A DNA stretch of 64,000 bases, taken from contig NC_134837.1 of NCBI RefSeq assembly GCF_004210375.1, positions 252,553,964 through 252,617,963 of the forward strand, written 5' to 3'. Below the pieces are notes generated by a model that saw only the letters and a list, made by a program, of their open reading frames with translations, was not told where the DNA came from and did not search any database. A program made the translations under genes and the position numbers. This document shows, piece by piece, positions 1 through 55,795 of the stretch. Each line of letters starts with the position of its first letter. Positions within the stretch are counted from its first letter, which is position 1. This DNA is from Tachypleus tridentatus (lineage: Eukaryota).

Positions 1-140
1 TAGGTTTCGAGTAGCCCAAAAGTTGGCGGTGGGTGGTGATGACTAGCTGCCTTCTCTCTAGTCTTACACAGCTTAATCAGGAAGGGCTAGCACAGATACC
101 CCTTATGTAGCTTTGCGAAAAATTAATAACAAACAAAAAG
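1..140 (+). mobile_element. tRNA-derived SINE, 3' portion. Its 5' part lies left of the window.
   Basis: Matches the body and tail (gtagcccaaaagttggcggtgggtggtgatgactagctgcc...aaacaaaaag) of the full-length copies at 8336 and 12448. Confidence 0.7.
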
Positions 141-801
141 TTTTATTCAGTTTAGTTTAGCATGTCTTAAAAATTTATAATCCTCTAAAGTTTTTGTTTA
201 TTGTATATTACATATTGAGAATAGATTTAACATCATATTCTTTCACCCCACTGAAAACAGTTAAAAGGAGAGATTTCTTCATTACTTTACTTTATTATTT
301 CCAAGGTTGCATGTAATGTCATATACCTGTGTATTAATCGTACATTATTTTCTCATACCTTGACGACAAAATATCACAAGTGAATTGAAAAACCTACAGC
401 AGGGTTAACAAAATTTGAAATTTCAGATTAAAAAAGAAGATAATACAATACTATTTTTAATTTCTTTAATATAATGAAGTTTAGATAATTTTAAAATCTT
501 ATTTAAACAATAAAAAACACCCAAAAGGTTAAAATTTCTTTACTGGGAGTCGGTCCGCGTTAGAGACAAAGGAAGGTGTTGTCCAATGCTGCCAGAAACA
601 TTTTATTTCAATGTTTTTTTTTAAATTTTCCTTCGCATTTTAAGCTTGACCCGACATCTACTATCGTTATTTAAACTAACCATGTGTTCATATGTATGTT
701 TAGGAATCACAATATTTAATATCTTGTTTAACAAAAACGTAAAAGAAGGTAATAGCCAATGTGCACTACACAATAAGGCTGAAACTTAAAACAAAAAGAT
801 A

Positions 802-2100
802 TACACTGCTGGCCAAAATCTTAAGGCCAATAAACATAAAGAAAAAATATGCGCTTTGCGTTGTCAGACTCAACCACTTATTTGAGCTTCGAAAGATGAA
901 AATAAAAAAATGGAAAATAAAAATAAAATACCTTTTTGGCATTTAATAGGGAAAATGTGAACAATATGAAATTAGCCTTAATCGATAAACACGTAACGAA
1001 ATTCAGTCATTTGTGTTCAAGCATTAGCGTTGTCAACATCTCCTGTGTTACAATTGGTAAAAACATGGCAAAGGCTAAAAAGTTGACAGAGTTTGAACGT
1101 GGCAGAATTGTCGAGCTGCAAAAGCAAGGTCTTTTTCAACGTGCCATCGCTGGTGAGATTGGACGTAGTAAACCTGCTGTTGCAAATTTTTTAAAAGACT
1201 CTGAGGGATATGGAACGAGAATTTCAAGTGGTCGGCCCAAGAAAATTTCGCCGGCGTTGAACAGGAGGATTCGAAGGGTTGTCCAGCAAGATACCATCCT
1301 ATCATCGAACTAGATTAAGGCCCTTATGAACTTAGAATGCAGATCAAGAACAATAAGACGGCATCTACAAGAGAAAGGCTTTAAAAACCGTAAGCGTCTT
1401 CAAAGGCCACGCCTCCTTCCACACCATGAAACAGCTCGGTTAAACTTTGCTGAGAAGCACTAAACATGGGATGTAGGAAAGTGGAAGAAGATTTTGTTCT
1501 CTGATGAGAAAAAAATTAAGCTGGATGGTTCACATGTCTTCCAACGCTACTGGCATGATAAGGATATCCCACCTGAGACATTTTCTACTCGACACAGTGA
1601 AGGAGGTTTCATCATCATCTGGGGTGATTTATCCTTCCATGGAACAATGGAGCTTTAGGTTATACAGGGACGTCAAACAGCAGCTGGCTACACTGGTATG
1701 TTGGAGAGAGCATCCTTATTTACTGAAGGCCCTCGTTTGTGTGGAAATGACTGGATCTTTCAGCAGGACAATGCTGCAATCCATATGCCTGCAGGACAAA
1801 GGACTTTTTAATGGAGAATAACGCGATTCTTTTGGACCATCCAGCGTGTTCGCCCAAACCGAACCCTATTGACAATATTTGGAAGTGGATGGCAAGGGAA
1901 GTCTAGAGAAATCGATGTCAATTCCAAACAGTGCATGATCTTCGTTAAGCCATCTTCACCACTTGGAATAACATTCCAGCCAGTCCTTTACAAACGCTTA
2001 TATCGACCATGCCAAAATGTATGCCAAATTTCCTCAGCTTTATAAATATAAGACAAAACAAAGAAAAAAAGATTTAATCTTTCGAGATTAGGTATTCAAA
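802..2100 (+). mobile_element. Tc1-family DNA transposon remnant. The left TIR is present and the right end is lost or decayed.
   Basis: The left end tacactgctggccaaaatcttaagg resembles the C. elegans Tc1 TIR (CAGTGCTGGCCAAAAAGATATCC). The internal transposase ORF has HTH and DDE motifs. No matching inverted right TIR was found. Confidence 0.6.
1066..2040 (+). pseudogene. Tc1-like transposase pseudogene with at least 4 frame breaks or stops
   Basis: Frame A MAKAKKLTEFERGRIVELQKQG... is the paired-like HTH. The DDE region is split across frames: [43 protein letters not shown]. The C-terminus is ...STMPKCMPNF. Confidence 0.8.
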
Positions 2101-2149
2101 TTAGCCTTAAGCAGGATTACTTGTTTATTCATTCATGATAAAATAGTAA

Positions 2150-2388
2150 AGGTTTGGTTTGTTTTGAATTTCGCGCATAGCTACTCGAGGATTATCCTTC
2201 CCTAATTTAGCAGAATAAAAGTAGAGGGAAGGCAGTTAATCACTACCACCCACCGCCAGCTCTTGGGCTACTCTTTTTACCAACGAATAGTGGGATTGAC
2301 CGTGATATTCTAACGTCCCTATGGCTGAAAGGGCAAGCGTGTTTGTGTGACGGAGATTCGAACCTGCGACCATCGGATTATGAAAGAA
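2150..2388 (-). mobile_element. tRNA-derived SINE copy, head-truncated
   Basis: Reverse complement of the SINE body (gaaggcagttaatcactaccacccaccgccagctcttgggctac) plus the T-arm relic ggagattcgaacctgcgacc. Confidence 0.75.
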
Positions 2389-2541
2389 ATGGTATGTACT
2401 GTAGTAGTTTCTTCTTTCAGTTGGTTAACTTACACTAATTTACTTTGTACTTTATGTTTCAATGATTTTATCAAAAGTAAATTTAAATTATTCCATGTTT
2501 TAAGGTCGATTACTCGAATAAATACAAGAGATTTGTTGGCG

Positions 2542-3423
2542 ATGGAATCCAGGTTGACCAAAGAAGAAGCCCTGTATTTTGCATCTAAAGTTCTTGAGAT
2601 ACCAGAGGCTAAGAGAAAATTGGCAACAGATCGCAGTGCTTTCCTAGATCATCTTATAGAGACGATCCACCAAGTAATTCCTTATCATAATATATCTTTC
2701 CTTTCACTGGAACCGGAACATCGTTACATACCAACATGGGCTGGAATTAAAGAAGCCATGATGGCTAAACAAGGAGGATCGTGTTACATTCTCAATGTCT
2801 TTGTGAAATATTTGCTTCAAGCTTTGGGGTTTGACGTGTATCATACTGCATCTGCGTTTGGATTTCCAAACAATCATATTGCCACAATTGTTCGAAACTT
2901 GTCGGCACGTGGCACTAAACATCTGGTGGATTTCAACGCCTTCCCAACGTTCAAGGCAATCCCATTAGATTTCGAAGAAGAATCACCAGTTTATAGCATG
3001 TCATATCTCAAATTTAAGTTTGTTCGTCAAGGAAATTTAATAATACGAGTTCATAAAACTTTAGACGTTCTTGTACCCGAGAATCGGCGTGATAAAGACG
3101 GTTGGTCTGATTATTTTATTTTTGATCTTGAACCTCGAGATCTTTCTTACTTTGAAGAACACATGACTAAAGCATACCTCGTTGCAGAAGTGAACCCTCC
3201 AGTCTTAGAAAATTTATATTTTATTAGCTTTCCTGGACTCAAACTCTGCGGTATCAAAAATAAGTTTGAGCTCTCAGAAGGAGCCGATCAGAAAATTCAA
3301 TACCAGCAGCTTTCATCAAAGTTCGAAGTGGTTCAGTCAATTATTAACAAATGTCCACAAATTCCCGAAGATCAAATCATCTTAGCGATTGACAGAATAA
3401 ATTTGTTCACTGTTTACAAGTAA
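2542..3423 (+). CDS. Arylamine N-acetyltransferase (NAT, pfam00797-like) homolog. 293 aa, intronless.
   Basis: ATG at 2542 (MESRLTKEEALYF...) to TAA at 3421-3423. It aligns with vertebrate NAT1/2: HQVIPYHNISF matches HQIRAVPFENLN, QGGSCYILNVF matches RGGWCLQVN (catalytic Cys), NNHIATIV matches TGMVHLLLQV (His), VDFNAFP matches VDAGFG (Asp), FIFDLEPRDLSYFE matches FTLEPRTIEDFE. The upstream part of the six-frame ORF 2347-2541 reads through a SINE and is not coding. Confidence 0.85.
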   Translation: MESRLTKEEALYFASKVLEIPEAKRKLATDRSAFLDHLIETIHQVIPYHNISFLSLEPEHRYIPTWAGIKEAMMAKQGGSCYILNVFVKYLLQALGFDVYHTASAFGFPNNHIATIVRNLSARGTKHLVDFNAFPTFKAIPLDFEEESPVYSMSYLKFKFVRQGNLIIRVHKTLDVLVPENRRDKDGWSDYFIFDLEPRDLSYFEEHMTKAYLVAEVNPPVLENLYFISFPGLKLCGIKNKFELSEGADQKIQYQQLSSKFEVVQSIINKCPQIPEDQIILAIDRINLFTVYK

Positions 3424-4367
3424 AGACGAAACGTGTTGCTTCATCCTTTTATTACTTCCTGAAGAAAATAAAAGATTCAACTTTCTTATTGTATTAAATG
3501 TTTAAATCATGTGTCGAAATGAAGTTGCGTATTTGTAGCCTTAGGCAAAGTTTTATTTTTTTCTTATCAATAAAAGAAATGTTTTAACCGTTTTATTATA
3601 TAAATTGTTTAGCATTACATTTAAAGGTAACTGTATTTACCATTCCTTAAAGTTGTAAACTATATGAACGATATACTGTAATTTTTTTTATTTCCAATAA
3701 ACTCGAATATTTTTCCCCAAAATAGTTTCTTTTCGCATTTACTTCGATCCTGTGAACATCACTTTACTCTTTTGTGAAGACTGGGTGGTACAAAACACTT
3801 ATATAAATTGATTTATTTTTGGGCAAATTATCTCTTCGACGTTTTGTTAACATAATAATTACAGCGCTGGACGGTGAATCGAAGGCTCGAGACCAGTACT
3901 ATTTTACCTGCTTTATCATCCTTGGATAAGTTATGAAAGTAAATGTTTATTCTGGTGTTTGGTTCCAAAGGCCTAAAAAATCCACTGTACTAGCTGATTC
4001 TACTGGGTTTTTGGTTAATAAATCAAATTAAGAACAGCTACTAGTACGTGAACTCTAAAGGACTTTTTTAACCTGCCCGTTTAACCCACATGCTCAAAAG
4101 ATGGGAGTTCAGGTTGAGAATTCCAATTCCTTTCTTTGATAAAACGTTTTCATTGGACTGTTTGTTTCTTACAAAACTGTCAAGGTAATGAAAGAATGCT
4201 TTTTATGTATTTATCTTTACCATAAAAAGAAATGATTTAGCTAACCCAGAAATCACTACAATCAACCATCCGCGATGCTCGTTCCAGTCAGCACTGGTCC
4301 CTTCCCAAAAATAATATAAACTAATTGGTGATCATACAAGCTCGAACTTATAATTTCTTGCAAAGTT

Positions 4368-4615
4368 ACTATTGGATGTTTGTTTTTAAATTTGCAGTAG
4401 TCGTCCCTAATTTAGCAGTGTAAGACTGGAGGGAAGGCAGCTAGTCATCACCCCCCTCCCCAACGCCAACTCTTGGGCTACTCTTTTGCCGCCAACGAAT
4501 AGTGGAATTGACCATGACTTTATAACGCCCCAACGGCGAAAGGGGCGAGCATGCTTGGAGGGATGGGGTTCGAACCTACAACCCTCATATTACGAGTAGA
4601 GAGCCCTGCAAAGTT
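4368..4615 (-). mobile_element. tRNA-derived SINE copy
   Basis: The reverse complement contains ggttcgaaccccatccc (T-arm), the anticodon-loop relic ctactcgtaatatgag and the body gtagcccaagagttggcg...gtgatgactagctgccttccc. Confidence 0.75.
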
Positions 4616-6865
4616 ATTTTATTGGTGGGAGACTTTTGGAGCACACTGACTGCTAATTAGCAGCATATATAAAACCCAATTCAGAATCATTTTGACTAAA
4701 ACAATCAAATAAACAACAAGCTAACGTTTAACTCCATTTTGTTTCCAACTAACGTCTGGCTATCTGTGCTGTATCCATTACAGATATCTTACACAGATTA
4801 TAGGGTTAAAAGCTCTCAAGCTGATAGGTTAACTATCAGATAAAAGTTTGTTTGACAAATAATAATTTTTGGTAACGTTTTTACGAAAATTTCTGTTACA
4901 CACATGTGTGTTTTATCTGTTTTCGCGAAATGCCTCAAAACTGGTAATATTCTATTTTAACTGTTTCAAATACAGGATGGGGCCATTTGATTTCGAGCTC
5001 AAAGGGCACCTTAAATTTAAACACTCGTTAAAGATTTTAGCATTAGTCAAGTTTCTCGACTTATTTTTGGCACCCTTGGCAAACCAAAAAATATTGGATG
5101 TAACTTCGTAAACATACACATATGATCACTGAACCATGGCAACTAACTGTACCTCTCCTATGTATGTCGTATAATTTTATATCTTTTGGACAACAGATAC
5201 CATCCAGTTTTGAATTCTGACCACAATTTGTCATTTTTTATAGAAGAGTTAACACAAAAGATCACAAAATCACTATATTGAGAAATGGGAAGACAACTTG
5301 TGACAAGAATACAAGGACACTACAAGATTAATGAAAATGGAGAGATTAGCCATTGTTGAACATACTACGTAAACTGGACACAATAAAGACTCCGCCAAAA
5401 ATAGAATAATCTACTCAGACAACGTTTGGAAAACAAGAAAAATAAAGGGCTCTTGTTGTATCAACAAAATAAAATGTTAGTTAAACAAAAACTTTAGCGA
5501 GCCTAGAAATGAGAAACTTATGGCTACCATTGGTTGAATTCACATTCAGTTGCTCCACCAATCAAAATCAAGAACGAACAACCAATTAAAGCGCATCAAC
5601 CTGAATAATATGTAAGGCCTACAGTACTTTGCATATGGGTCACTTGGTATGTCAAATGTACAGGATTTGTATAGTTGATGTTTATGAAGATATTATGAGC
5701 ATATTGTAAGTTCTGTTTTTGTATAAAGTTTATCACTATGCAACTGACTTTATGAAAAATTGTAATCTGTAAATGTGATGAAACAAACGCTGGGGCTGGC
5801 GTTATGTCTTCTCTAGAACTGGGAGCACTGACCTACTGATACAGGTCTCTGCCGTCTGATTCTGCTGATTGTAATTAGTTCATCGGTTGTCAGATTAAAA
5901 TGTCTAAAACATCTCATTTCAAACCAACATCATGAAGACAACTGCTCCTCTGGTTTTCTTTGAGGCTTTTACTTGCATCTGTAGAACGAAAATCCAACTG
6001 TCCAGAGAAACCACTATTAACTGGTCAAAATTATCAAAAGCCTAGGATATGGAAGGAAGTTAAGGGCACCCAGGTTGCTGACAGTGTTGAGATCACAATA
6101 CTAATTTAGGGGTTACATGCACAGTACTGGGGCTCTACCCCAGAGCAGATGTAAGGCCCATAGATACCATGCATACTTACAAATAATCTGGAAGCTTAAT
6201 GTTCATACCCCATAATTAAAACTTTGTATATTATCTTAAGTTTTATTCACTCTGGTACACTTTATGAATTCACCTACAAATAACTTTTAATTCTGCTATT
6301 ACGGTGAAGAGGAACAGAAGTTTCTGAGTGCCCCTGGTTGTCTAATAGTCCCTTTATTAGATTTTACACTCATAGTAACTGTCAAGTCGATATAATATGC
6401 ATAAACCAGTACATTAATTTTGTTCCTTCACACAGTGTAAATGCCCAACCAAGTCATAGGGTAACCTTGGTTAAACTTACTGAATAATTTTTGGATTAAA
6501 AAATGAAATTCACATAACTTTATTTAATTCTATTATTTAATGTGTCATGAAATTTCCATAATTTTACTCAGAGATTTTTCAACTAAGAAGCCGAGTCCAA
6601 AAAGCAATCTACAAGTGATTAAAATGTGGTTCAAAACAAAAACAAAATGTACATCGTCATCAACTGAAATTATTGGAGATTTTATACAGTATTATCTGTT
6701 CTAATGTAAAATACAGATAATTTACAAAAAAAATATTTTTATACCATGATATTTAATCTAGTATCACATAAATAATTTATCACAAGATTACTGAAATCAA
6801 ATTAATTTATATGTATATCTGAAGTGATGCAGTGCCTAACAAATGAGGGTTTTTTTCTCCTGTTA

Positions 6866-7018
6866 TTATTCCAAGCTGGTTTTCCACAGAAGCAGATGAA
6901 CGTGACCACTGGCTGTGCCACAGACAATACGAATGTTGTCCACTGTTCTTAACATTTTACGGCCAAAAGTATGTACAGAAACTGCACTGATAGGTACTGG
7001 CATGTGAAACTGTCCCAG
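6866..7018 (-). CDS. Duplicate copy of the terminal coding exon of the NACHT-WD40 gene, ending in a TAA stop
   Basis: Acceptor cttttacag, then LGQFHMPVPISAVSVHTFGRKMLRTVDNIRIVCGTASGHVHLLLWKTSLE*. Identical in organisation to 19454-19606. Confidence 0.6.
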   Translation of the reverse strand: MGQFHMPVPISAVSVHTFGRKMLRTVDNIRIVCGTASGHVHLLLWKTSLE

Positions 7019-7180
7019 CTGTAAAAGAAATTAGGTGAGAACATCAAGTGGATTTCTAGTCTATTCTTCATTCCAAAGTTTTCCTTGTGAAAGCAAAATT
7101 CTCATCAACAAGACAAAACTGTACAATTAGAGCAAATCATTTGTAGTATTCAGTGATGTCGAGAAAACCCACTTGTAGAG

Positions 7181-7355
7181 AAATATATATGTAAAAACGG
7201 CTCGTTTGGGTTGAGAACATTTTTTACGAAGAGGAGTGAACAACGTTTCAACCTTCTTCGGTCATCTTCTTCGTGAACCTGATGTTGACCGAAACATTGT
7301 TCACTCCTCTACGTAAAAAATGTTCTCAACCCAAACGAGCCGTTTTTACATATAT
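7181..7355. repeat. Near-perfect long inverted repeat (hairpin). Arms about 70 bp with AT-rich ends. MITE or foldback-like.
   Basis: aaatatatatgtaaaaacggctcgtttgggttgagaacattttttacgaagaggagtgaacaacgtttcaacc, then a loop of about 30 nt, then the reverse complement arm. Only 2-3 mismatches. Confidence 0.85.
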
Positions 7356-7556
7356 ATTTGTAGTATTGTTTTCAAAGAACAACATTTCCCATGAAAATGT
7401 AATGTGACTTTAAATTTACCATTTTCAATTTCTGTAGTGATAAATGACATGTTTAAACAATTGAATAATTTGTTCTTAGAGAATGAGAGTACGGCTATTC
7501 AAAGTGTGCCATTAAGACAAACATATTATAAGAGTACAAAATAAACTAGACAATAC

Positions 7557-7661
7557 CTGTTTCTGACTGAACAGATCCCACACCTTCGGTGTTCCATCAA
7601 GTGAAGATGTAAATAAAAACATTTCTGTACAGCAAATAGCTGTCAAAGACTTTGTGTGCAT
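7557..7661 (-). CDS. Duplicate copy of the penultimate WD40 exon of the NACHT-WD40 gene
   Basis: ttttacag|ATG..., reading MHTKSLTAICCTEMFLFTSSLDGTPKVWDLFSQKQ, then |gtattg. This is the tail of a WD40 repeat (SSLDGTPKVWDL). 105 nt, phase 0. Confidence 0.65.
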
Positions 7662-8335
7662 CTGTAAAAATACAATGCAGATAACAGACTATATACAGTC
7701 AAATCATAAATTATGTTACGGCTAATAAACAAGTATAGGTCAACTGGGTCTTGAAGACAAGATTGTACTGATGATTTACAGAAATTAAAACTTTTTTTCA
7801 AGTGATGTTAAACCAAAACATAGATTTCTCTCAAAAAAACTTTTTTACTACAATTTCTCTTGTTTGTCATGGAAACAAAGCATCAGAAGAGTTAGTTGTC
7901 TCCCAAAGACCAACCTGTACAAAAGTATAATTACTTCTCAAACAACATCCAACAAATCAGTTGCTACCATACATTCTTATATGTGTCTTTCAAAGCTATA
8001 CTAAACAGAATTTCTTTAGAATTTCCAAACTTCTTATTAATGTTCTTGATCGGCGTACGTAACTCTGTTATAAAGTCCTTGGTTATGTTGTAACCTGATC
8101 TACGGCCTCTTTTTTGTCTTATTTTCGGTTTAGATCTTATTTCACCGATCACTGGATTGTGATCAGAGCCTCAGTCTACTGATGGGTAAATTCTAGAATG
8201 TTCTTACTTTGTGTGTAATCTATCTGATTTGTTACAATTCCTTAACCATCCTGAGGTAACCTCCAAGTGTACAAAAACTGAGTGATCATTACATTATATC
8301 AAATGTTGCTGATCGTTAAGCCTATTTCCTCGCCA

Positions 8336-8612
8336 GGCCCGGCATGGCCAGATGGTCAGGGTGCTCGACTCGTAATTTCAGGGTTGAGAGTTCGAATCCC
8401 GGTCACACCACACATGTTCGCCTTTTCAGCCGTGGGGCGTTATACTGTAACAGTAAATCTCATTTTATGTTTATAAATGTGTATCTCAAGAGTTGGCGAT
8501 GGGTAGTGATGACTAGATGCCTTCCCTGTAGTCTGTAACTGCTAAATTAGGGACGGCTAGTGCAGATAGTTCTCGTGTAGCTTTGCGCGAAATTCAAAAA
8601 ACAAAATAATCT
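8336..8612 (+). mobile_element. tRNA-derived SINE, full length
   Basis: tRNA-like head ggcccggcatggccagatggtcagggtgctcgactcgtaatttcagggttgagagttcgaatcccggtcacacca, then the conserved body and an A-rich tail ...cgaaattcaaaaaac. Confidence 0.8.
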
Positions 8613-9539
8613 TCGTAAATCTATAATTATCTCATTCCCGTCTAAAGGGCTGTATGTTTGTCATTATACATTGCTGTCTTCAAAGGAAGTTTTACGTTAA
8701 AGATAGCTAATTATTCTCTTTTTCTTTTCGGCTTTCAGGAATACTTTGGGTACTTTATTATAAGGGTTAGTAATTCTACGAACACATGAGTGGGACAGAG
8801 GTAAAGGTGTTGATACTGGTACTAAGAGTTTTTTAAAAATCTACGTTTTACGTTTGGCTAGGTGTTTTCTTTCCTCTGCGTTCAGCCGTATTATATTATA
8901 ATGACAAGGTCGTGTATCATTTTATTAGTTTTGTGATTTTTGTTTATTTTGTAGTGTCTGATATTTGTTTCTATTATGACAAAGCGAATGCATCGAACCC
9001 GAAATCTTTTTCCAAAACACCTGATATTAAATTTCACATTTAACAAGTTATATAGTGGCGGAAGGCATACAGAGTGTGTTGTTAGAGAGAGAGCCAATTC
9101 CCAAAAAAAATAATATACATCAGCGACTGTGGCTTAGGAAAAAGAGTTATTGTATATGGGTTCCTCATTTGAGTAATATCATGTTATTTATCTATTGTCC
9201 CCTTCATTAAGTATATGATATACCACTTAATATATCAAATAGATTTACATTTATTTTACGTCAATATGCCCTTAATTATAAAACATGTATTACAAAGATT
9301 GAGTGTCATTATTAATTTAGAATTTTTATTTAGAGTTAGTCTGGACATACTAATCTGGCCCAAGCTTATGGATTTACGGACGAAACTGTTGTTAACAGCA
9401 AGGGTGCCCAACTAACAAAACAATCCACACTAGTTTTTATAAATAGCCACGTAAGAAAAGTGCATTTGATTAATTATTCTGATGACCAGATAGCCTACTG
9501 TGATTGGAAGAATTTTTTTTTTAATTTTAACTTTCAGGT

Positions 9540-9960
9540 TTTCTCCTGATTTCACTGCTGTATAGTTTCCTCAATATCTGAATAAAAGTTTTCGATTTTA
9601 TCTTCTTCATTATCAGATGATGGCGCATAAACTTGTGGGATAATTAAATCAGTGTTTTATCTAAATCTTGAATACGATTATACCATCTCGGACAAACCAA
9701 AAGCTTTTCACGAAGTTGCTTGATTTCTCTTTGAACCAGTATGAAGTAGGAGTCTACCATGCCTCTGTGCATTATATATTATTCAAAGATCTTTATTGAA
9801 GTGAAAGTTTCCGAAGATTTCTTGTAGTTGTTTTCTGTGCACTATTGGCATAAAAACAGTTTGTCTGGAAAAACGTCGATATTTCTTTGTTCTAGCGTGG
9901 CCGTTTCTCTCAGTCTTCCTTCACATCAGATATCGCCTTATTTAGCTTCTTAAAATGCTT
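9540..9960 (-). mobile_element. Possible non-LTR retrotransposon (LINE) endonuclease-domain fragment, decayed
   Basis: The minus-strand translation contains IIPQVYAPSSDNEEDKIENFYSDIEETI, which is like the conserved VYAPT...FY..L segment of APE domains. A nearby frame reads SYFILVQREIKQ. The order of motifs is not canonical. Confidence 0.3.
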
Positions 9961-30470: not shown

Positions 30471-30839
30471 CTATTAAGAGAAAATGTGTTATAGAGTGGA
30501 GAAACAAAACTAAAAACATACTTTACTAGATTAGACAGTTTAACAGTAAATGCTTCAAAACAGACACAACACGTTATAATCAGTAGGCCAAGCTGATTAG
30601 CAATAGTCCTAGCACTATCAATTCATGTTCTTTACTAATTGTCTGCTGGTAAATTTAAGAAACTTGCTTACTGATTTATAGTTAATAGTATAAATACACT
30701 ATGGCACAATGGCTGTATGACAGATATACATTTTTGTGTTTACGAAGCCAATGTAAATTCCTTGTTCAGGTATAGTTCTTCAGTTTACAGAAAAATATGT
30801 TTATAATATGTACACGAATCTTAGCTAACGATTACAACT

Positions 30840-31130
30840 CATCTAACAATGGATCATTACGCACACAAATAAATCCTACCTGACAATAACAACTTCACTG
30901 GCAGTGGGTCATAATGCACACAAGTGAATTCTACCCAACAATCACAACTCAATTAACAATGGGTCATAATGCACACAAGTGAATTCTACCTAAAATTTAT
31001 CACAATTTGACTAACAATGGGTCATAATGTGCACAAGTGAATCCAACCTAACAGCCACAACTCAAGAAACAATGGGTCACAATACATACAAGTGAATCCT
31101 GTCTAGAAACTGTAACTCAACTGATAATAA
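30840..31130. repeat. Minisatellite, 57-60-bp unit, about 5 copies
   Basis: Recurring ...caactcaattaacaatgggtcataatgcacacaagtgaattctacc... Confidence 0.8.
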
Positions 31131-33659: not shown

Positions 33660-33890
33660 TAACACACTTAACCAAGTGTTTATAACAACACACATCAAAA
33701 AGATAAAAATTAACCAAATGCTTATAAGTAATAATACATATTATAAAGATAACAATTAACCAAATGTTTATAAGTGATAATACACATTAAAAAAGATAAC
33801 AATTAACCAAATGTTTATAAGTGATAATACATATTAAAAAAATAACAATTAACCAAATGTTTATAAGTGATAATACATATCAAAAAGAGG
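33660..33890. repeat. Minisatellite, 57-bp unit, about 4 copies
   Basis: taaccaaatgtttataagtgataatacatattaaaaaagataacaat repeated. Confidence 0.85.
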
Positions 33891-35444: not shown

Positions 35445-35700
35445 AATTGGGCAGTTTGTTTTTCACAAGGGCTATCTCCACTAGCCCTTGTGAAAAACTA
35501 CAGGAAAGACCAGCTAGTCATCACCATCCACTGCCAACTCTTAGGGTACTTTTTCACCAATAAATAGTGTGACTGAAGTCACATTGTAACACATCCATTG
35601 CTGAAACGGTGAGTATATTTGGTGGGATGGGGATTCAAACCCACAACCCTCAGATTGCAAGTCAAGCACCCTAATCACTTAACCATGCCGGATAATTAGT
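35445..35700 (-). mobile_element. tRNA-derived SINE, diverged copy
   Basis: The reverse complement reads ccggcatggttaagtgattagggtgcttgacttgcaatctgagggttgtgggtttgaatccccatccc...ccctaagagttggcagtggatggtgatgactagctgg. Confidence 0.65.
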
Positions 35701-36609: not shown

Positions 36610-37250
36610 TATTCTTTCACTTGAATATATTGCACCAGCAGAACTACTTTAACTTATTCTTTCACTTGAATATATTGCACCAGCAGAACTACTTTAACTT
36701 ATTCTTTCACTTGAATATATTGCACCAGCAGAACTACTTTAACTTATTCTTTCACTTGAATATATTGCACCAGCAGAACTACTTTAACTTATTCTTTCAC
36801 TTGAATATATTGCACCAGCAGAACTACTTTAACTTATTCTTTCACTTGAATATATTGCACCAGCAGAACTACTTTAACTTATTCTTTCACTTGAATATAT
36901 TGCACCAGCAGAACTACTTTAACTTATTCTTTCACTTGAATATATTGCACCAGCAGAACCACTTTAACATATTCTTTCACTTGAATATATTGCACCAGCA
37001 GAACTACTTTAACTTATTCTTTCACTTGAATATATTGCACCAGCAGAACCACTTTAACATATTCTTTCACTTGAATATATTGCACCAGCAGAACTACTTT
37101 AACTTATTCTTTCACTTGAATATATTGCACCAGCAGAACTACTTTAACTTATTCTTTCACTTGAATATATTGCACCAGCAGAACTACTTTAACTTATTCT
37201 TTCACTTGAATATATTGCACCAGCAGAACCACTTTAACATATTCTTACAT
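36610..37250. repeat. Minisatellite, 45-bp unit, about 14 copies with 2 variant unit types
   Basis: Unit cttgaatatattgcaccagcagaactactttaacttattctttca. Three units carry ccactttaacat. It produces the spurious 213-aa ORF 36621-37262 (NILHQQNYFNLFFHL x14). Confidence 0.95.
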
Positions 37251-38169
37251 CTTCTCAAGTAAGAATATTCCTATATTTTTGAAACGTGTACACAAAGAAA
37301 GTTATATTGAACAAAAACATTATAAAATAAAATTTAAGAAAACAACAAAATCCCAGGTTTGAGGCTTGTTCCTAAGTTTGTAAACTTCACATTAAAATCC
37401 TTTCTTTGATACCATCACTAGTCACTTCTCAGAGATCATACACAACTTTTTATGTAAATAATATTTATTTAACACTGAGTTAGATAGAAAATAATCTTTT
37501 CTATCCATTCATGTTTAGCCTATGGTTTTATCTTGTTTCAAGATAATATATACAAAAGTAGAAACCTCCATCAGTTGCCACGTATGCTAAAGTTCAACCA
37601 CAATGCCCATGAGAAGTGTGTTTTTTGACCAGTGAGAACCCCAGTATAACTGGCATGGGAAAAGGTATTCAATCTTTAGTCTTGTTATGTAATACTGCCA
37701 GTGTATAAAAACAAAAATAATAAATATCATAAAAACAAAAGTTTCACTCATCAAATTAAGTGCAAATGAGAGAAAAAAAATGACATATCCGTTCAATGCA
37801 GTGCTAAGAATGAAGTTATCACAAGTGCATTGGAGGAGTTATTGCACATGAAGGATGTGTTGTTTTCCTGCTGCTGAAGGACTGTTTTTGCATGATGACA
37901 TCATAATGCACCAGTGCAGTTCATATGAGTAAGTTCAAGTCTAGTGTCATGAAAACCTCATAGGAGATGCAAGAGAGGAACAACATTTGTGTGTTTGTGT
38001 AAAGACATAGATTACCATCTCATAAATATCATTATCGAATTAATAATCCAGCTACTTTCTGAAACAGTATAAACAGTGATAAAACTAACTATTGTAGTTA
38101 TTCTACTAAAAAAATACTTGAGTTTTTCTAGTGCTTTATAACCTCAAATTTAATAATCATAACAAAATA

Positions 38170-50904: not shown

Positions 50905-51215
50905 AAATGCAGAGATTTATTTACTATGTTAGTGTTTTTATACAAACAAACAAAGCTTTATTACCAAGTTACAAAATAGAAGACAAGTATTACGATGTTA
51001 GTGTTTTTCTACAAACAAACAAAGCTTTATCACCAAGTTACAAAATAGAAGACAAGTATTACATGTTAGTGTTTTTCTACAAACAAACAAAGCTTTATCA
51101 CCAAGTTACAAAATAGAAGACATTTATTTACTATGTTAGTGTTTTTATACAAACAAACAAAGCTTTATTACCAAGTTACAAAATAGAAGACAAGTATTAC
51201 GATGTTAGAAAACAT
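50905..51215. repeat. Minisatellite, 62-70-bp unit, about 4.5 copies
   Basis: gttagtgtttttatacaaacaaacaaagctttattaccaagttacaaaatagaagacaagtattacgat repeated. It produces the spurious ORF 50883-51116. Confidence 0.85.
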
Positions 51216-55139: not shown

Positions 55140-55500
55140 ATTTAGAAACATAGCATCATCAGAAAGAAATCACTTATCAGTACAGCAGCAGCAAGAAATC
55201 ATTTGAAAATACAGCAGCATAAGAAGAAAATCATTTAAAAACACAGCACCATCAATAAACAATCATTTAAAAACACAGCATCATGATAAAGTAGTCATTT
55301 AGAAACACACAAGTTGAGAGTAGAATCGTTCAGAAGTATGGCAGCACCAGAAAGAAATCATTTAGAAGCAATGCATCATCAAAAACAAATTACATCAAAG
55401 AACAACATCAGAGAAAGCAGTTTTTTTTAAACACACAAAACCATAAGAAAGCAATCATTTAAAAGCACAGAATCATCAACCAGTAAGTTAGAAACAAACA
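55140..55500. repeat. Degenerate tandem repeat, about 36-bp unit, about 10 copies
   Basis: Recurring aaacacagcatcatcagaaagaaatcatttag variants. Confidence 0.7.
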
Positions 55501-55564: not shown

Positions 55565-55795
55565 TGTTTATAGCAAAGCTACTACTTAAGACTCTCTGAT
55601 GCCACTATGTAATTCTAAGCTGTAGACCACAGGGAAGGTAACTGTTTATCGACACCCACCATCAACTTTTGGAATATTCTTTGTCAATGAACAGTAAAAT
55701 TGACTGTAAAATAACAACTTCCTAATGGCTGAAAGGGAGAGCATGTATGCTGCCAGATGGAAAGTACCACCAGGCTATGCCAGGTCCCCTTATCA
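55565..55795 (-). mobile_element. tRNA-derived SINE, diverged copy
   Basis: The reverse complement reads ggggacctggcatagcctggtggtactttccatctggcagcatacatgctctccctttcagccattagg...aaagttgatggtgggtgtcgataaacagttaccttccctgtgg. Confidence 0.55.

Follow-up and report, generated by a model that had tools for sequence, protein, structure and literature searches.

We analyzed a 64,000-nucleotide stretch of the genome of the horseshoe crab Tachypleus tridentatus (RefSeq assembly GCF_004210375.1, contig NC_134837.1, positions 252,553,964 to 252,617,963 of the forward strand; hereafter, the window). An earlier note had described a 293-codon open reading frame (ORF) in it as an intact arylamine N-acetyltransferase (NAT) homolog with an identical twin. 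The evidence makes it very probable that the two ORFs are tandem, recently homogenized copies of a functional nuclear gene for an enzyme of the PF00797 family, that the subfamily was inherited vertically, and that the neighboring repeats are passengers. The assignment of the encoded protein to the NAT family is well supported by its sequence and its predicted structure, and the gene is probably functional.

Family assignment, fold, and putative catalytic residues

The coding sequence runs from an ATG at 2542 to a stop at 3423, and its frame remains open upstream as far as a GTG at 2347. At a stop-codon frequency of 0.076, the chance expectation of a 358-codon open frame in the window is ∼6e-8. 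The second ORF, at 15124–16005, differs from the first at 0 of 882 nucleotides, in agreement with the description of an intact frame and an identical twin. These twins are the longest ORFs of the window, which has a GC content of 31.9%; the second-longest type (213 aa) is produced by a 45-bp minisatellite. The region is rich in repeats and holds no other long ORF outside the NAT copies, and a tblastn search of the 64 kb window returned no third NAT copy.

Sequence and structure comparisons both place the protein in the NAT family. The Pfam profile PF00797 (Acetyltransf_2) matches residues 35–208 of the 293-aa protein with E = 6.2e-10 and 39.7 bits, above the curated cutoff of 22.8. Among the sequences of the PDB, the best match of the single protein is Bacillus cereus NAT3 (4DMO; E = 3e-5), and a profile made from 44 relatives picks up 22 different NAT-family PDB sequences, the best of them again 4dmo (E = 5e-17). 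The same profile recovers full-length human NAT1 (2ija) at E = 4e-13 and also matches NAT2 (2PFR). An AlphaFold2 model built on the alignment of relatives has a mean predicted local distance difference test (pLDDT) score of 93.8 and a predicted template modeling (pTM) score of 0.92. When this model was compared with the PDB by Foldseek, ranks 1–40 were all NAT-family chains, with E values from 7e-13 to 2e-8 and query-normalized template modeling (TM) scores of 0.56–0.75. These chains come from human, mycobacteria, Mesorhizobium, Bacillus, Salmonella, Pseudomonas, and Nocardia and include Fusarium FDB2 and GdmF; after rank 40, the matches fall sharply to E = 0.017 and a TM score of 0.25. The modeled protein adopts the three-domain NAT fold over its full length, which, together with the PF00797 score above cutoff, bears out its identification as a NAT homolog.

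A Cys-His-Asp triad had also been proposed, and its residues lie in the motifs QGGSCY (Cys81), NNHIATIV (His112), and HLVDFNAFP (Asp130). In HMMER and MAFFT alignments, Cys81 shares a column with the Cys of RGGLCY (4dmo, 3lnb) and of RGGWCL (2ija, human NAT1), His112 with the His of 4dmo and 3lnb, and Asp130 with an Asp in 2ija and 3lnb but a Glu in 4dmo. Conservation across 143 sequences of the subfamily is nearly complete, with Cys in 140, His in 142, and an acidic residue in all 143 (Asp in 99 and Glu in 44). Both the alignment to NAT columns and this conservation uphold the proposed triad positions. In the model, Cys81 is predicted to be the first residue of helix 81–94, His112 to open strand 112–118, and Asp130 to follow the partner strand 126–129. 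A Cys at the start of a helix with His and Asp on a hairpin is the expected layout for a papain-like NAT active site.

The suggestion that the replacement of GGWC by GGSC is a special change did not hold, because the residue preceding the Cys varies across the same 143 sequences (Leu in 82, Val in 19, Met in 11, Thr in 10, Ser in 6, and Ile in 6). As a separate observation, Glu serves as the triad acid in 44 of the 143 animal subfamily members, and on this count the Glu variant of the triad seems common in animals. The title of PDB entry 4DMO describes a Cys-His-Glu triad in B. cereus NAT3 that is termed "non-canonical" and reported as unique.

By homology with solved NATs, Cys81 would be activated by His112 and Asp130. 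It would take up an acyl group, most likely acetyl, from an acyl-CoA to form a thioester and would then pass this group, in a ping-pong transfer, to an acceptor (an aromatic amine, a hydrazine, or a hydroxylamine).

Gene identity, exon structure, and origin

The 293-aa protein (P0167) is identical to the T. tridentatus RefSeq entries XP_076330929.1 (LOC143236513) and XP_076337128.1 (LOC143239667 isoform X3), which belong to a 275.9 Mb chromosome; the window is therefore horseshoe-crab nuclear DNA. That one protein appears under two RefSeq gene IDs on the same chromosome agrees with the two copies in the window. Further paralogs on this chromosome are LOC143239667 X1/X2 (3 substitutions), LOC143238952, LOC143239727 and LOC143236544 (86–87% identity). 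Two others lie elsewhere, LOC143256338 on a chromosome of 196 Mb and a "putative arylamine N-acetyltransferase 2" (∼53% identity) on one of 101 Mb, and T. tridentatus has at least seven paralogous loci. In Limulus polyphemus there are at least two homologs, named arylamine N-acetyltransferase in UniRef. With these names in place, and with the exact protein already in public annotation (RefSeq) as an "uncharacterized protein", the rarity attributed to the gene was overstated.

Among the LOC143239667 "isoforms", the X1/X2 proteins differ from X3 by three substitutions. Under this gene model, common 5′ exons seem to have been connected to distinct coding exons of nearly the same sequence, and the isoform differences would therefore place a third copy nearby, outside the window.

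The gene had been called intronless, a description that stands for the single-exon coding sequence but probably not for the whole gene, which the X1 isoform and an AG acceptor at 2503–2504 suggest is spliced. The 293-codon ORF is uninterrupted, and relatives on animal-like contigs are likewise single ORFs. RefSeq isoform X1 of a near-identical paralog (P0166, 343 aa) carries an N-terminal extension that ends in ...TDN followed by RSITRINTRDLLA-MESRL, and the 13 residues directly ahead of the Met reproduce exactly the in-frame translation of the sequence upstream of the ATG at 2542. This in-frame leader starts directly after ttattccatgttttaAG at 2503–2504, and RSITRINTRDLLAMESRL maps to 2503–2556 and 15085–15138. 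Because the P0166 extension matches the in-frame stretch after the acceptor, the first base of the coding exon is most likely 2505 (15087 in copy B), with one or more upstream exons joined to it by splicing. Mammalian NAT genes are arranged alike, with an intronless ORF and upstream noncoding exons (PMC4158862).

An upstream exon was not convincingly located in the window by tblastn of the RefSeq X1 N-terminal extension, which recovered the ORF-contiguous part and a weak fragment only (6896–6928 and 19478–19518; E ∼ 8). This fragment belongs to a possible relic or variant of an alternative 5′ exon (Table 1). Its peptide MNVTTGCATDN resembles the X1 extensions of P0170 (MTVTASDHWATDN followed by RS) and P0166 (...TRDHWATDN followed by RS), and no clean GT donor follows it. 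The site at 6890–6934 is located ∼8.2 kb upstream of the copy B coding exon.

Comparison with Limulus informs both the age of the gene and its constraint. A Limulus homolog (L005:79–747, which ends at the contig end) has an intact frame and, over 247 codons, a synonymous divergence (dS) of 0.22–0.29 and a ratio of nonsynonymous to synonymous divergence (dN/dS) of 0.56–0.68. On the strength of this intact homolog, sequence divergence indicates that the gene is older than the Tachypleus–Limulus split and under moderate constraint. Could the gene nevertheless be a decaying or noncatalytic copy, open only because the duplication is young? The fairly high dN/dS and the altered family motifs (RGG to QGG, PFEN to PYHN, and VDxGxG to VDFNAFP) would fit such a copy, and no conclusion on selection follows from the identity of the twins, as 4.5 kb of flank is equally identical. 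However, the frame is intact in 8 of 8 distinct Tachypleus proteins and 2 of 2 Limulus proteins retrieved (52–99% identity), and these keep the triad residues wherever the region is present. By our estimate, a pseudogene would be unlikely to diverge at ∼16% of its nucleotides across 247 codons and still show no stop or frameshift, and the structural model is very confident (pLDDT 93.8). We therefore consider a decaying copy quite improbable and favor a functional gene.

Several points nonetheless weigh against a functional arylamine N-acetyltransferase. A dN/dS of ∼0.6 signifies moderate constraint only, the Limulus sequence used to obtain it may be a paralog instead of an ortholog, and the RefSeq gene models are predictions. 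Sequence aligners place the His of human NAT1 three columns away, an offset attributable to a His–Asp hairpin that is 3 residues longer in the horseshoe-crab protein (18 versus 15 positions). The VDxGxG motif after the Asp is altered to VDFNAFP, and the Arg of RGGxC is replaced by Gln. Finally, the NAT fold also occurs in enzymes that form amides or draw on a different acyl donor, as the PDB titles for Fusarium FDB2 malonyltransferase and the amide synthase GdmF indicate. Because the fold includes a malonyltransferase and amide synthases, "acetyl" and "arylamine" are assumptions here; judging from these enzymes, the NAT fold alone does not reveal the acyl donor or the acceptor.

The relatives of the protein point to animals. 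A full scan of 1.84 billion representatives returned 362 relatives at E ≤ 0.001, and profile searches with 44 and 138 sequences over a 5.8-billion-protein set gave 27–28 matches. Names are attached to ∼30 of roughly 360 family representatives, and every one of these is an animal: Limulus, Branchiostoma (33–37% identity), the crinoids Anneissia and Antedon, Strongylocentrotus, Acanthaster, Asterias, Apostichopus, the hemichordate Glandiceps, the snail Bulinus, and the sponge Halichondria. Five echinoderm classes are represented among them, and no other arthropod. The closest non-xiphosuran relatives (36–42% identity) come from ENA and Logan assemblies.

Three relatives' loci (L001–L003; ERZ25069326, ERZ25068511, and ERZ24894575; 38–42% identity) lie on long gene-poor contigs of "metagenome" assemblies. 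Each encodes the NAT as a single uninterrupted ORF, with Death and ankyrin domains at one locus and transposase fragments at another. These contigs are probably host DNA of marine animals.

The choice between vertical and horizontal origin had been left to a phylogeny. In a neighbor-joining tree of 146 sequences (no bootstrap), the horseshoe-crab proteins form one clade nested inside the animal set, with human NAT1 and two Bacillus NATs outside. Because the named relatives are all animals and the Limulus homolog shows the gene to be older than the split of the two genera, the sequence evidence points to an old metazoan subfamily that was passed down vertically and lost many times, rather than to horizontal transfer or contamination. 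This would be a divergent animal NAT subfamily extending from sponges to amphioxus, inherited vertically, lost in many lineages, and expanded to no fewer than seven loci in horseshoe crabs.

Acquisition from bacteria, or contaminant DNA, could account for a Bacillus NAT as the best single-sequence PDB match (4dmo, E = 3e-5) and for the single-exon ORF. However, a single-exon ORF is typical of the family, and the surroundings, part of a 276 Mb chromosome, have 32% GC and include a Tc1 relic, repeats resembling short interspersed nuclear elements (SINEs), and a splice acceptor. A Limulus homolog exists at dS ∼0.27, and the relatives at 30–42% identity are all in animals or on animal-like contigs with sparse genes and Death/ankyrin domains. 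A single-protein scan of 185,579 prokaryote genomes, which detects close relatives only, found no close prokaryotic relative. A horizontal or contaminant origin is exceedingly unlikely in our assessment, and we retain vertical descent.

NATs of other animals have been noted in the literature. Divergent invertebrate NATs cluster with atypical fish and lizard NATs (PMC3601968), and partial NAT-like expressed sequence tags from the limpet Lottia and the shrimp Litopenaeus are mentioned in PMC4447851 (citing Glenn et al. 2010). A review of spider venom enzymes contains an EC 2.3.1.5 entry for theraphosids (PMC11399385), and the supposed absence of NATs from nematodes is contradicted by a statement in another review (PMC11787565). 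A literature search found no published work on a horseshoe-crab NAT. A bolder interpretation, which we hold to be unlikely, is that horseshoe crabs are the only or nearly the only arthropods to keep an ancient metazoan NAT subfamily that was lost in insects and other well-studied arthropods. They would have expanded it by whole-genome and tandem duplication with ongoing gene conversion, and in the clade with Ser/Thr before the Cys, the specificity for substrate or acyl donor could be new and linked to a marine, microbe-rich life.

The duplicated segment and its repeats

Self-BLAST of the window reveals two segments, copies A and B (Table 1), that are 98.84% identical over 8038 columns. Copy A is cut by the window start, and the duplicated unit is therefore at least 8 kb long. 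Its right end is sharp at 8017/20591, and the intervening 4.5 kb (8018–12585) has no counterpart after copy B. Every one of the 48 substitutions between the copies falls after position 4567; of the 20 indels, the 12 that lie no further than position 6400 each change a short homopolymer run by 1 bp. Past 4567 the substitutions form a gradient that reaches 20 per 500 bp (∼4%) at 7001–7500. Because a first 4567 bp with 0 substitutions is followed by rising divergence, the sequences look like an older duplication in which the gene-bearing part was recently homogenized by gene conversion or unequal crossing-over. The identity of the twin ORFs was also considered as a sign of purifying selection and rejected, as 4.5 kb of noncoding surroundings is equally free of substitutions.

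The same comparison bears on whether the two copies are an assembly artifact, with a falsely duplicated haplotype or mis-joined reads standing for one genomic locus. The lack of substitutions over the first 4567 bp would be expected of such an artifact, and the 1-bp homopolymer changes resemble long-read consensus errors. However, divergence climbs to ∼4% at 7000–7500 before the sharp end at 8017/20591, and the 4.5 kb that follows copy A does not resemble what follows copy B, whereas a retained haplotype would keep matching. There are 0 N gaps in the window, and in RefSeq two gene IDs of one chromosome share this protein, alongside many other family paralogs. An artifact is thus improbable, and a genuine tandem duplication is preferred.

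The flanking Tc1 relic and SINE-like repeats reported earlier are present. The Tc1/Tc3-type element matches HTH_Tnp_Tc3_2 (PF01498) at E = 7e-11 and 42.7 bits (cutoff 31.5), with weak matches to HTH_38 and HTH_Tnp_Tc3_1, and is considered a relic because its ORFs are split across frames. The catalytic part of the transposase gave no Pfam match within 936–1811, where an "FQQDNA"-like remnant was seen by eye only. The SINE-like repeat at 2140–2400 (∼200–260 bp long) ends 142 bp before the ATG and is dispersed in at least 10 diverged copies in the window, at 70–83% identity. A tRNA-like head was not found in it, with 0 genes from ARAGORN and 0 Rfam matches at E ≤ 1. One SINE-like copy spans 12586, the copy B equivalent of the window start.

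The position of the implied acceptor also determines how these repeats are placed. Because 2504/2505 falls between the repeats and the ATG, the Tc1 relic and the SINE-like repeat are most likely part of an intron (or upstream spacer) and not of a promoter. As passengers, probably intronic or intergenic, they would have been duplicated along with the gene. The earlier note had instead raised a promoter co-opted from the repeats, or transduplication. More broadly, the gene could have been captured or copied by a transposon (transduplication or retroposition) or be driven by a SINE or Tc1-relic promoter, given that an ORF without introns has repeats 142 bp before it and 981 bp after it. However, the acceptor that the X1 isoform implies between the SINE-like element and the ATG would put the transcription start further upstream, and that element is on the opposite strand. 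The duplicated unit of at least 8 kb holds several different repeats as well as unique sequence and is not bounded by one element. No poly(A) tail or target-site duplication turned up, although no search was made for them. Transduplication is not needed, as the segmental duplication carries gene and repeats together and a single-exon ORF is the norm in relatives and in mammals; promoter co-option is not required either. We consider transposon capture or a repeat-derived promoter very unlikely, and the repeats are best regarded as passengers.

Table 1. Coordinates of the NAT copies, the duplicated segments, and the repeats (window positions)
Feature	Position	Strand	Remarks
Predicted 5′ end of coding exon	2505..2541	+	acceptor ttttaAG ends at 2504; 37-nt leader in frame with ATG; twin 15087-15123
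NAT-family coding sequence, copy 1	2542..3423	+	293 aa plus stop; ORF, Pfam, fold, RefSeq identity
Putative catalytic codons, copy 1	Cys81 2782-2784; His112 2875-2877; Asp130 2929-2931		
Candidate poly(A) signals past copy 1 stop	3467..3701	+	AATAAA at 3467, 3569, 3696; ATTAAA at 3493; pattern scan
NAT-family coding sequence, copy 2	15124..16005	+	0 nt differences from copy 1
Putative catalytic codons, copy 2	Cys81 15364-15366; His112 15457-15459; Asp130 15511-15513		
Segmental duplication, copy A	1..8017	.	cut by window start; self-BLAST
Segmental duplication, copy B	12586..20591	.	self-BLAST
Possible relic or variant of alternative 5′ exon	6890..6934	+	ATG 6896 opens MNVTTGCATDN after ttttccacAG; twin 19478-19522
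Degraded Tc1/Tc3-type transposase relic	~936..1811	+	several frames; PF01498; twin ~12,585 bp downstream
SINE-like dispersed repeat upstream of coding exon	2140..2400	-	B-box-like GGTTCGAATC; twin 14722-14982
Second copy of the same SINE-like repeat	4404..4595	.	981 bp past stop; twin 16987-17170
Further SINE-like copies	9-138, 8390-8599, 11800-12006, 12484-12723	-	70-83% identity
Further SINE-like copies	35490-35662, 55653-55749		70-83% identity
Minisatellite	36610-37246		45-bp unit, 14.2 copies, 98% matches; spurious 213-aa ORF at 36621-37262
Further minisatellites	21930-22280 (68/139 bp), 30816-31100 (55/113), 33690-33888 (46/93), 50921-51208 (69), 55140-55309 (32)		

Significance and comparison with known NATs

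The gene is an ordinary, computationally annotated, and unstudied member of a known animal subfamily, located in a young tandem duplicate. It adds a chelicerate lineage to the patchy distribution of NAT enzymes in animals and provides a clean example of a young, homogenized tandem duplicate in a xenobiotic-metabolism gene family. The duplication fits the birth-and-death pattern described for vertebrate NATs (PMC3601968). For annotation, the name NAT-family acyltransferase can be given to "uncharacterized protein LOC143236513". The finding is also of use for comparative toxicology in an animal of ecological and biomedical importance. Knowledge of NAT mechanism and origin is unchanged by this finding.

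The closest known systems are the NAT homologs of other invertebrates (sea urchin, amphioxus, crinoids, sea stars, sea cucumber, hemichordate, Bulinus, and Halichondria), which share 30–42% full-length identity with the horseshoe-crab protein and are ∼285–310 aa long. They have in common the motifs IPFQN, GGxCY, NH(I/V), (L/I)V(D/E), and P-x-F-x-AIPLDFxxESPVY, are encoded by a single-exon ORF wherever the DNA was seen, and are mostly annotated as "uncharacterized" or "arylamine N-acetyltransferase". The horseshoe-crab clade differs from them in having Ser/Thr instead of Leu before the catalytic Cys in most paralogs, in a DFNAFP/DFSGYP segment after the Asp that is one residue shorter, and in its seven or more loci, near-identical tandem copies included.

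Human NAT1 and NAT2 (2PQT, 2IJA, 2PFR) resemble the modeled protein in their three-domain fold (Foldseek E ∼ 1e-12; TM scores of 0.68–0.72), in the Cys and Asp columns, and in the conserved Pro of the PFEN motif. They also share an intronless ORF with one or more upstream exons, as described in PMC4158862 and as predicted here for the horseshoe crab. In contrast, identity in the structural alignment is only 13–16%, RGGWC is replaced by QGGSC in the horseshoe crab, and human NAT1 falls outside the whole invertebrate subfamily in the neighbor-joining tree.

The best sequence matches among solved structures are B. cereus (BACCR)NAT3 (4DMO) and B. anthracis NAT C (3LNB), whose GGLCYELN and HIAT motifs align residue for residue with the horseshoe-crab protein. 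These enzymes differ in being bacterial, in the Glu of 4DMO where the horseshoe-crab protein has Asp, and in an identity of ∼17% in the structural alignment. The FDB2 malonyltransferase (7QI3), the GdmF amide synthase (8BTM and others), and a Streptomyces arylamine N-acyltransferase (8K51) have the same fold as the model and a Cys-centered active site, but they are weaker matches (E from 1e-8 to 1e-10), and nothing in the horseshoe-crab protein points specifically to their activities.

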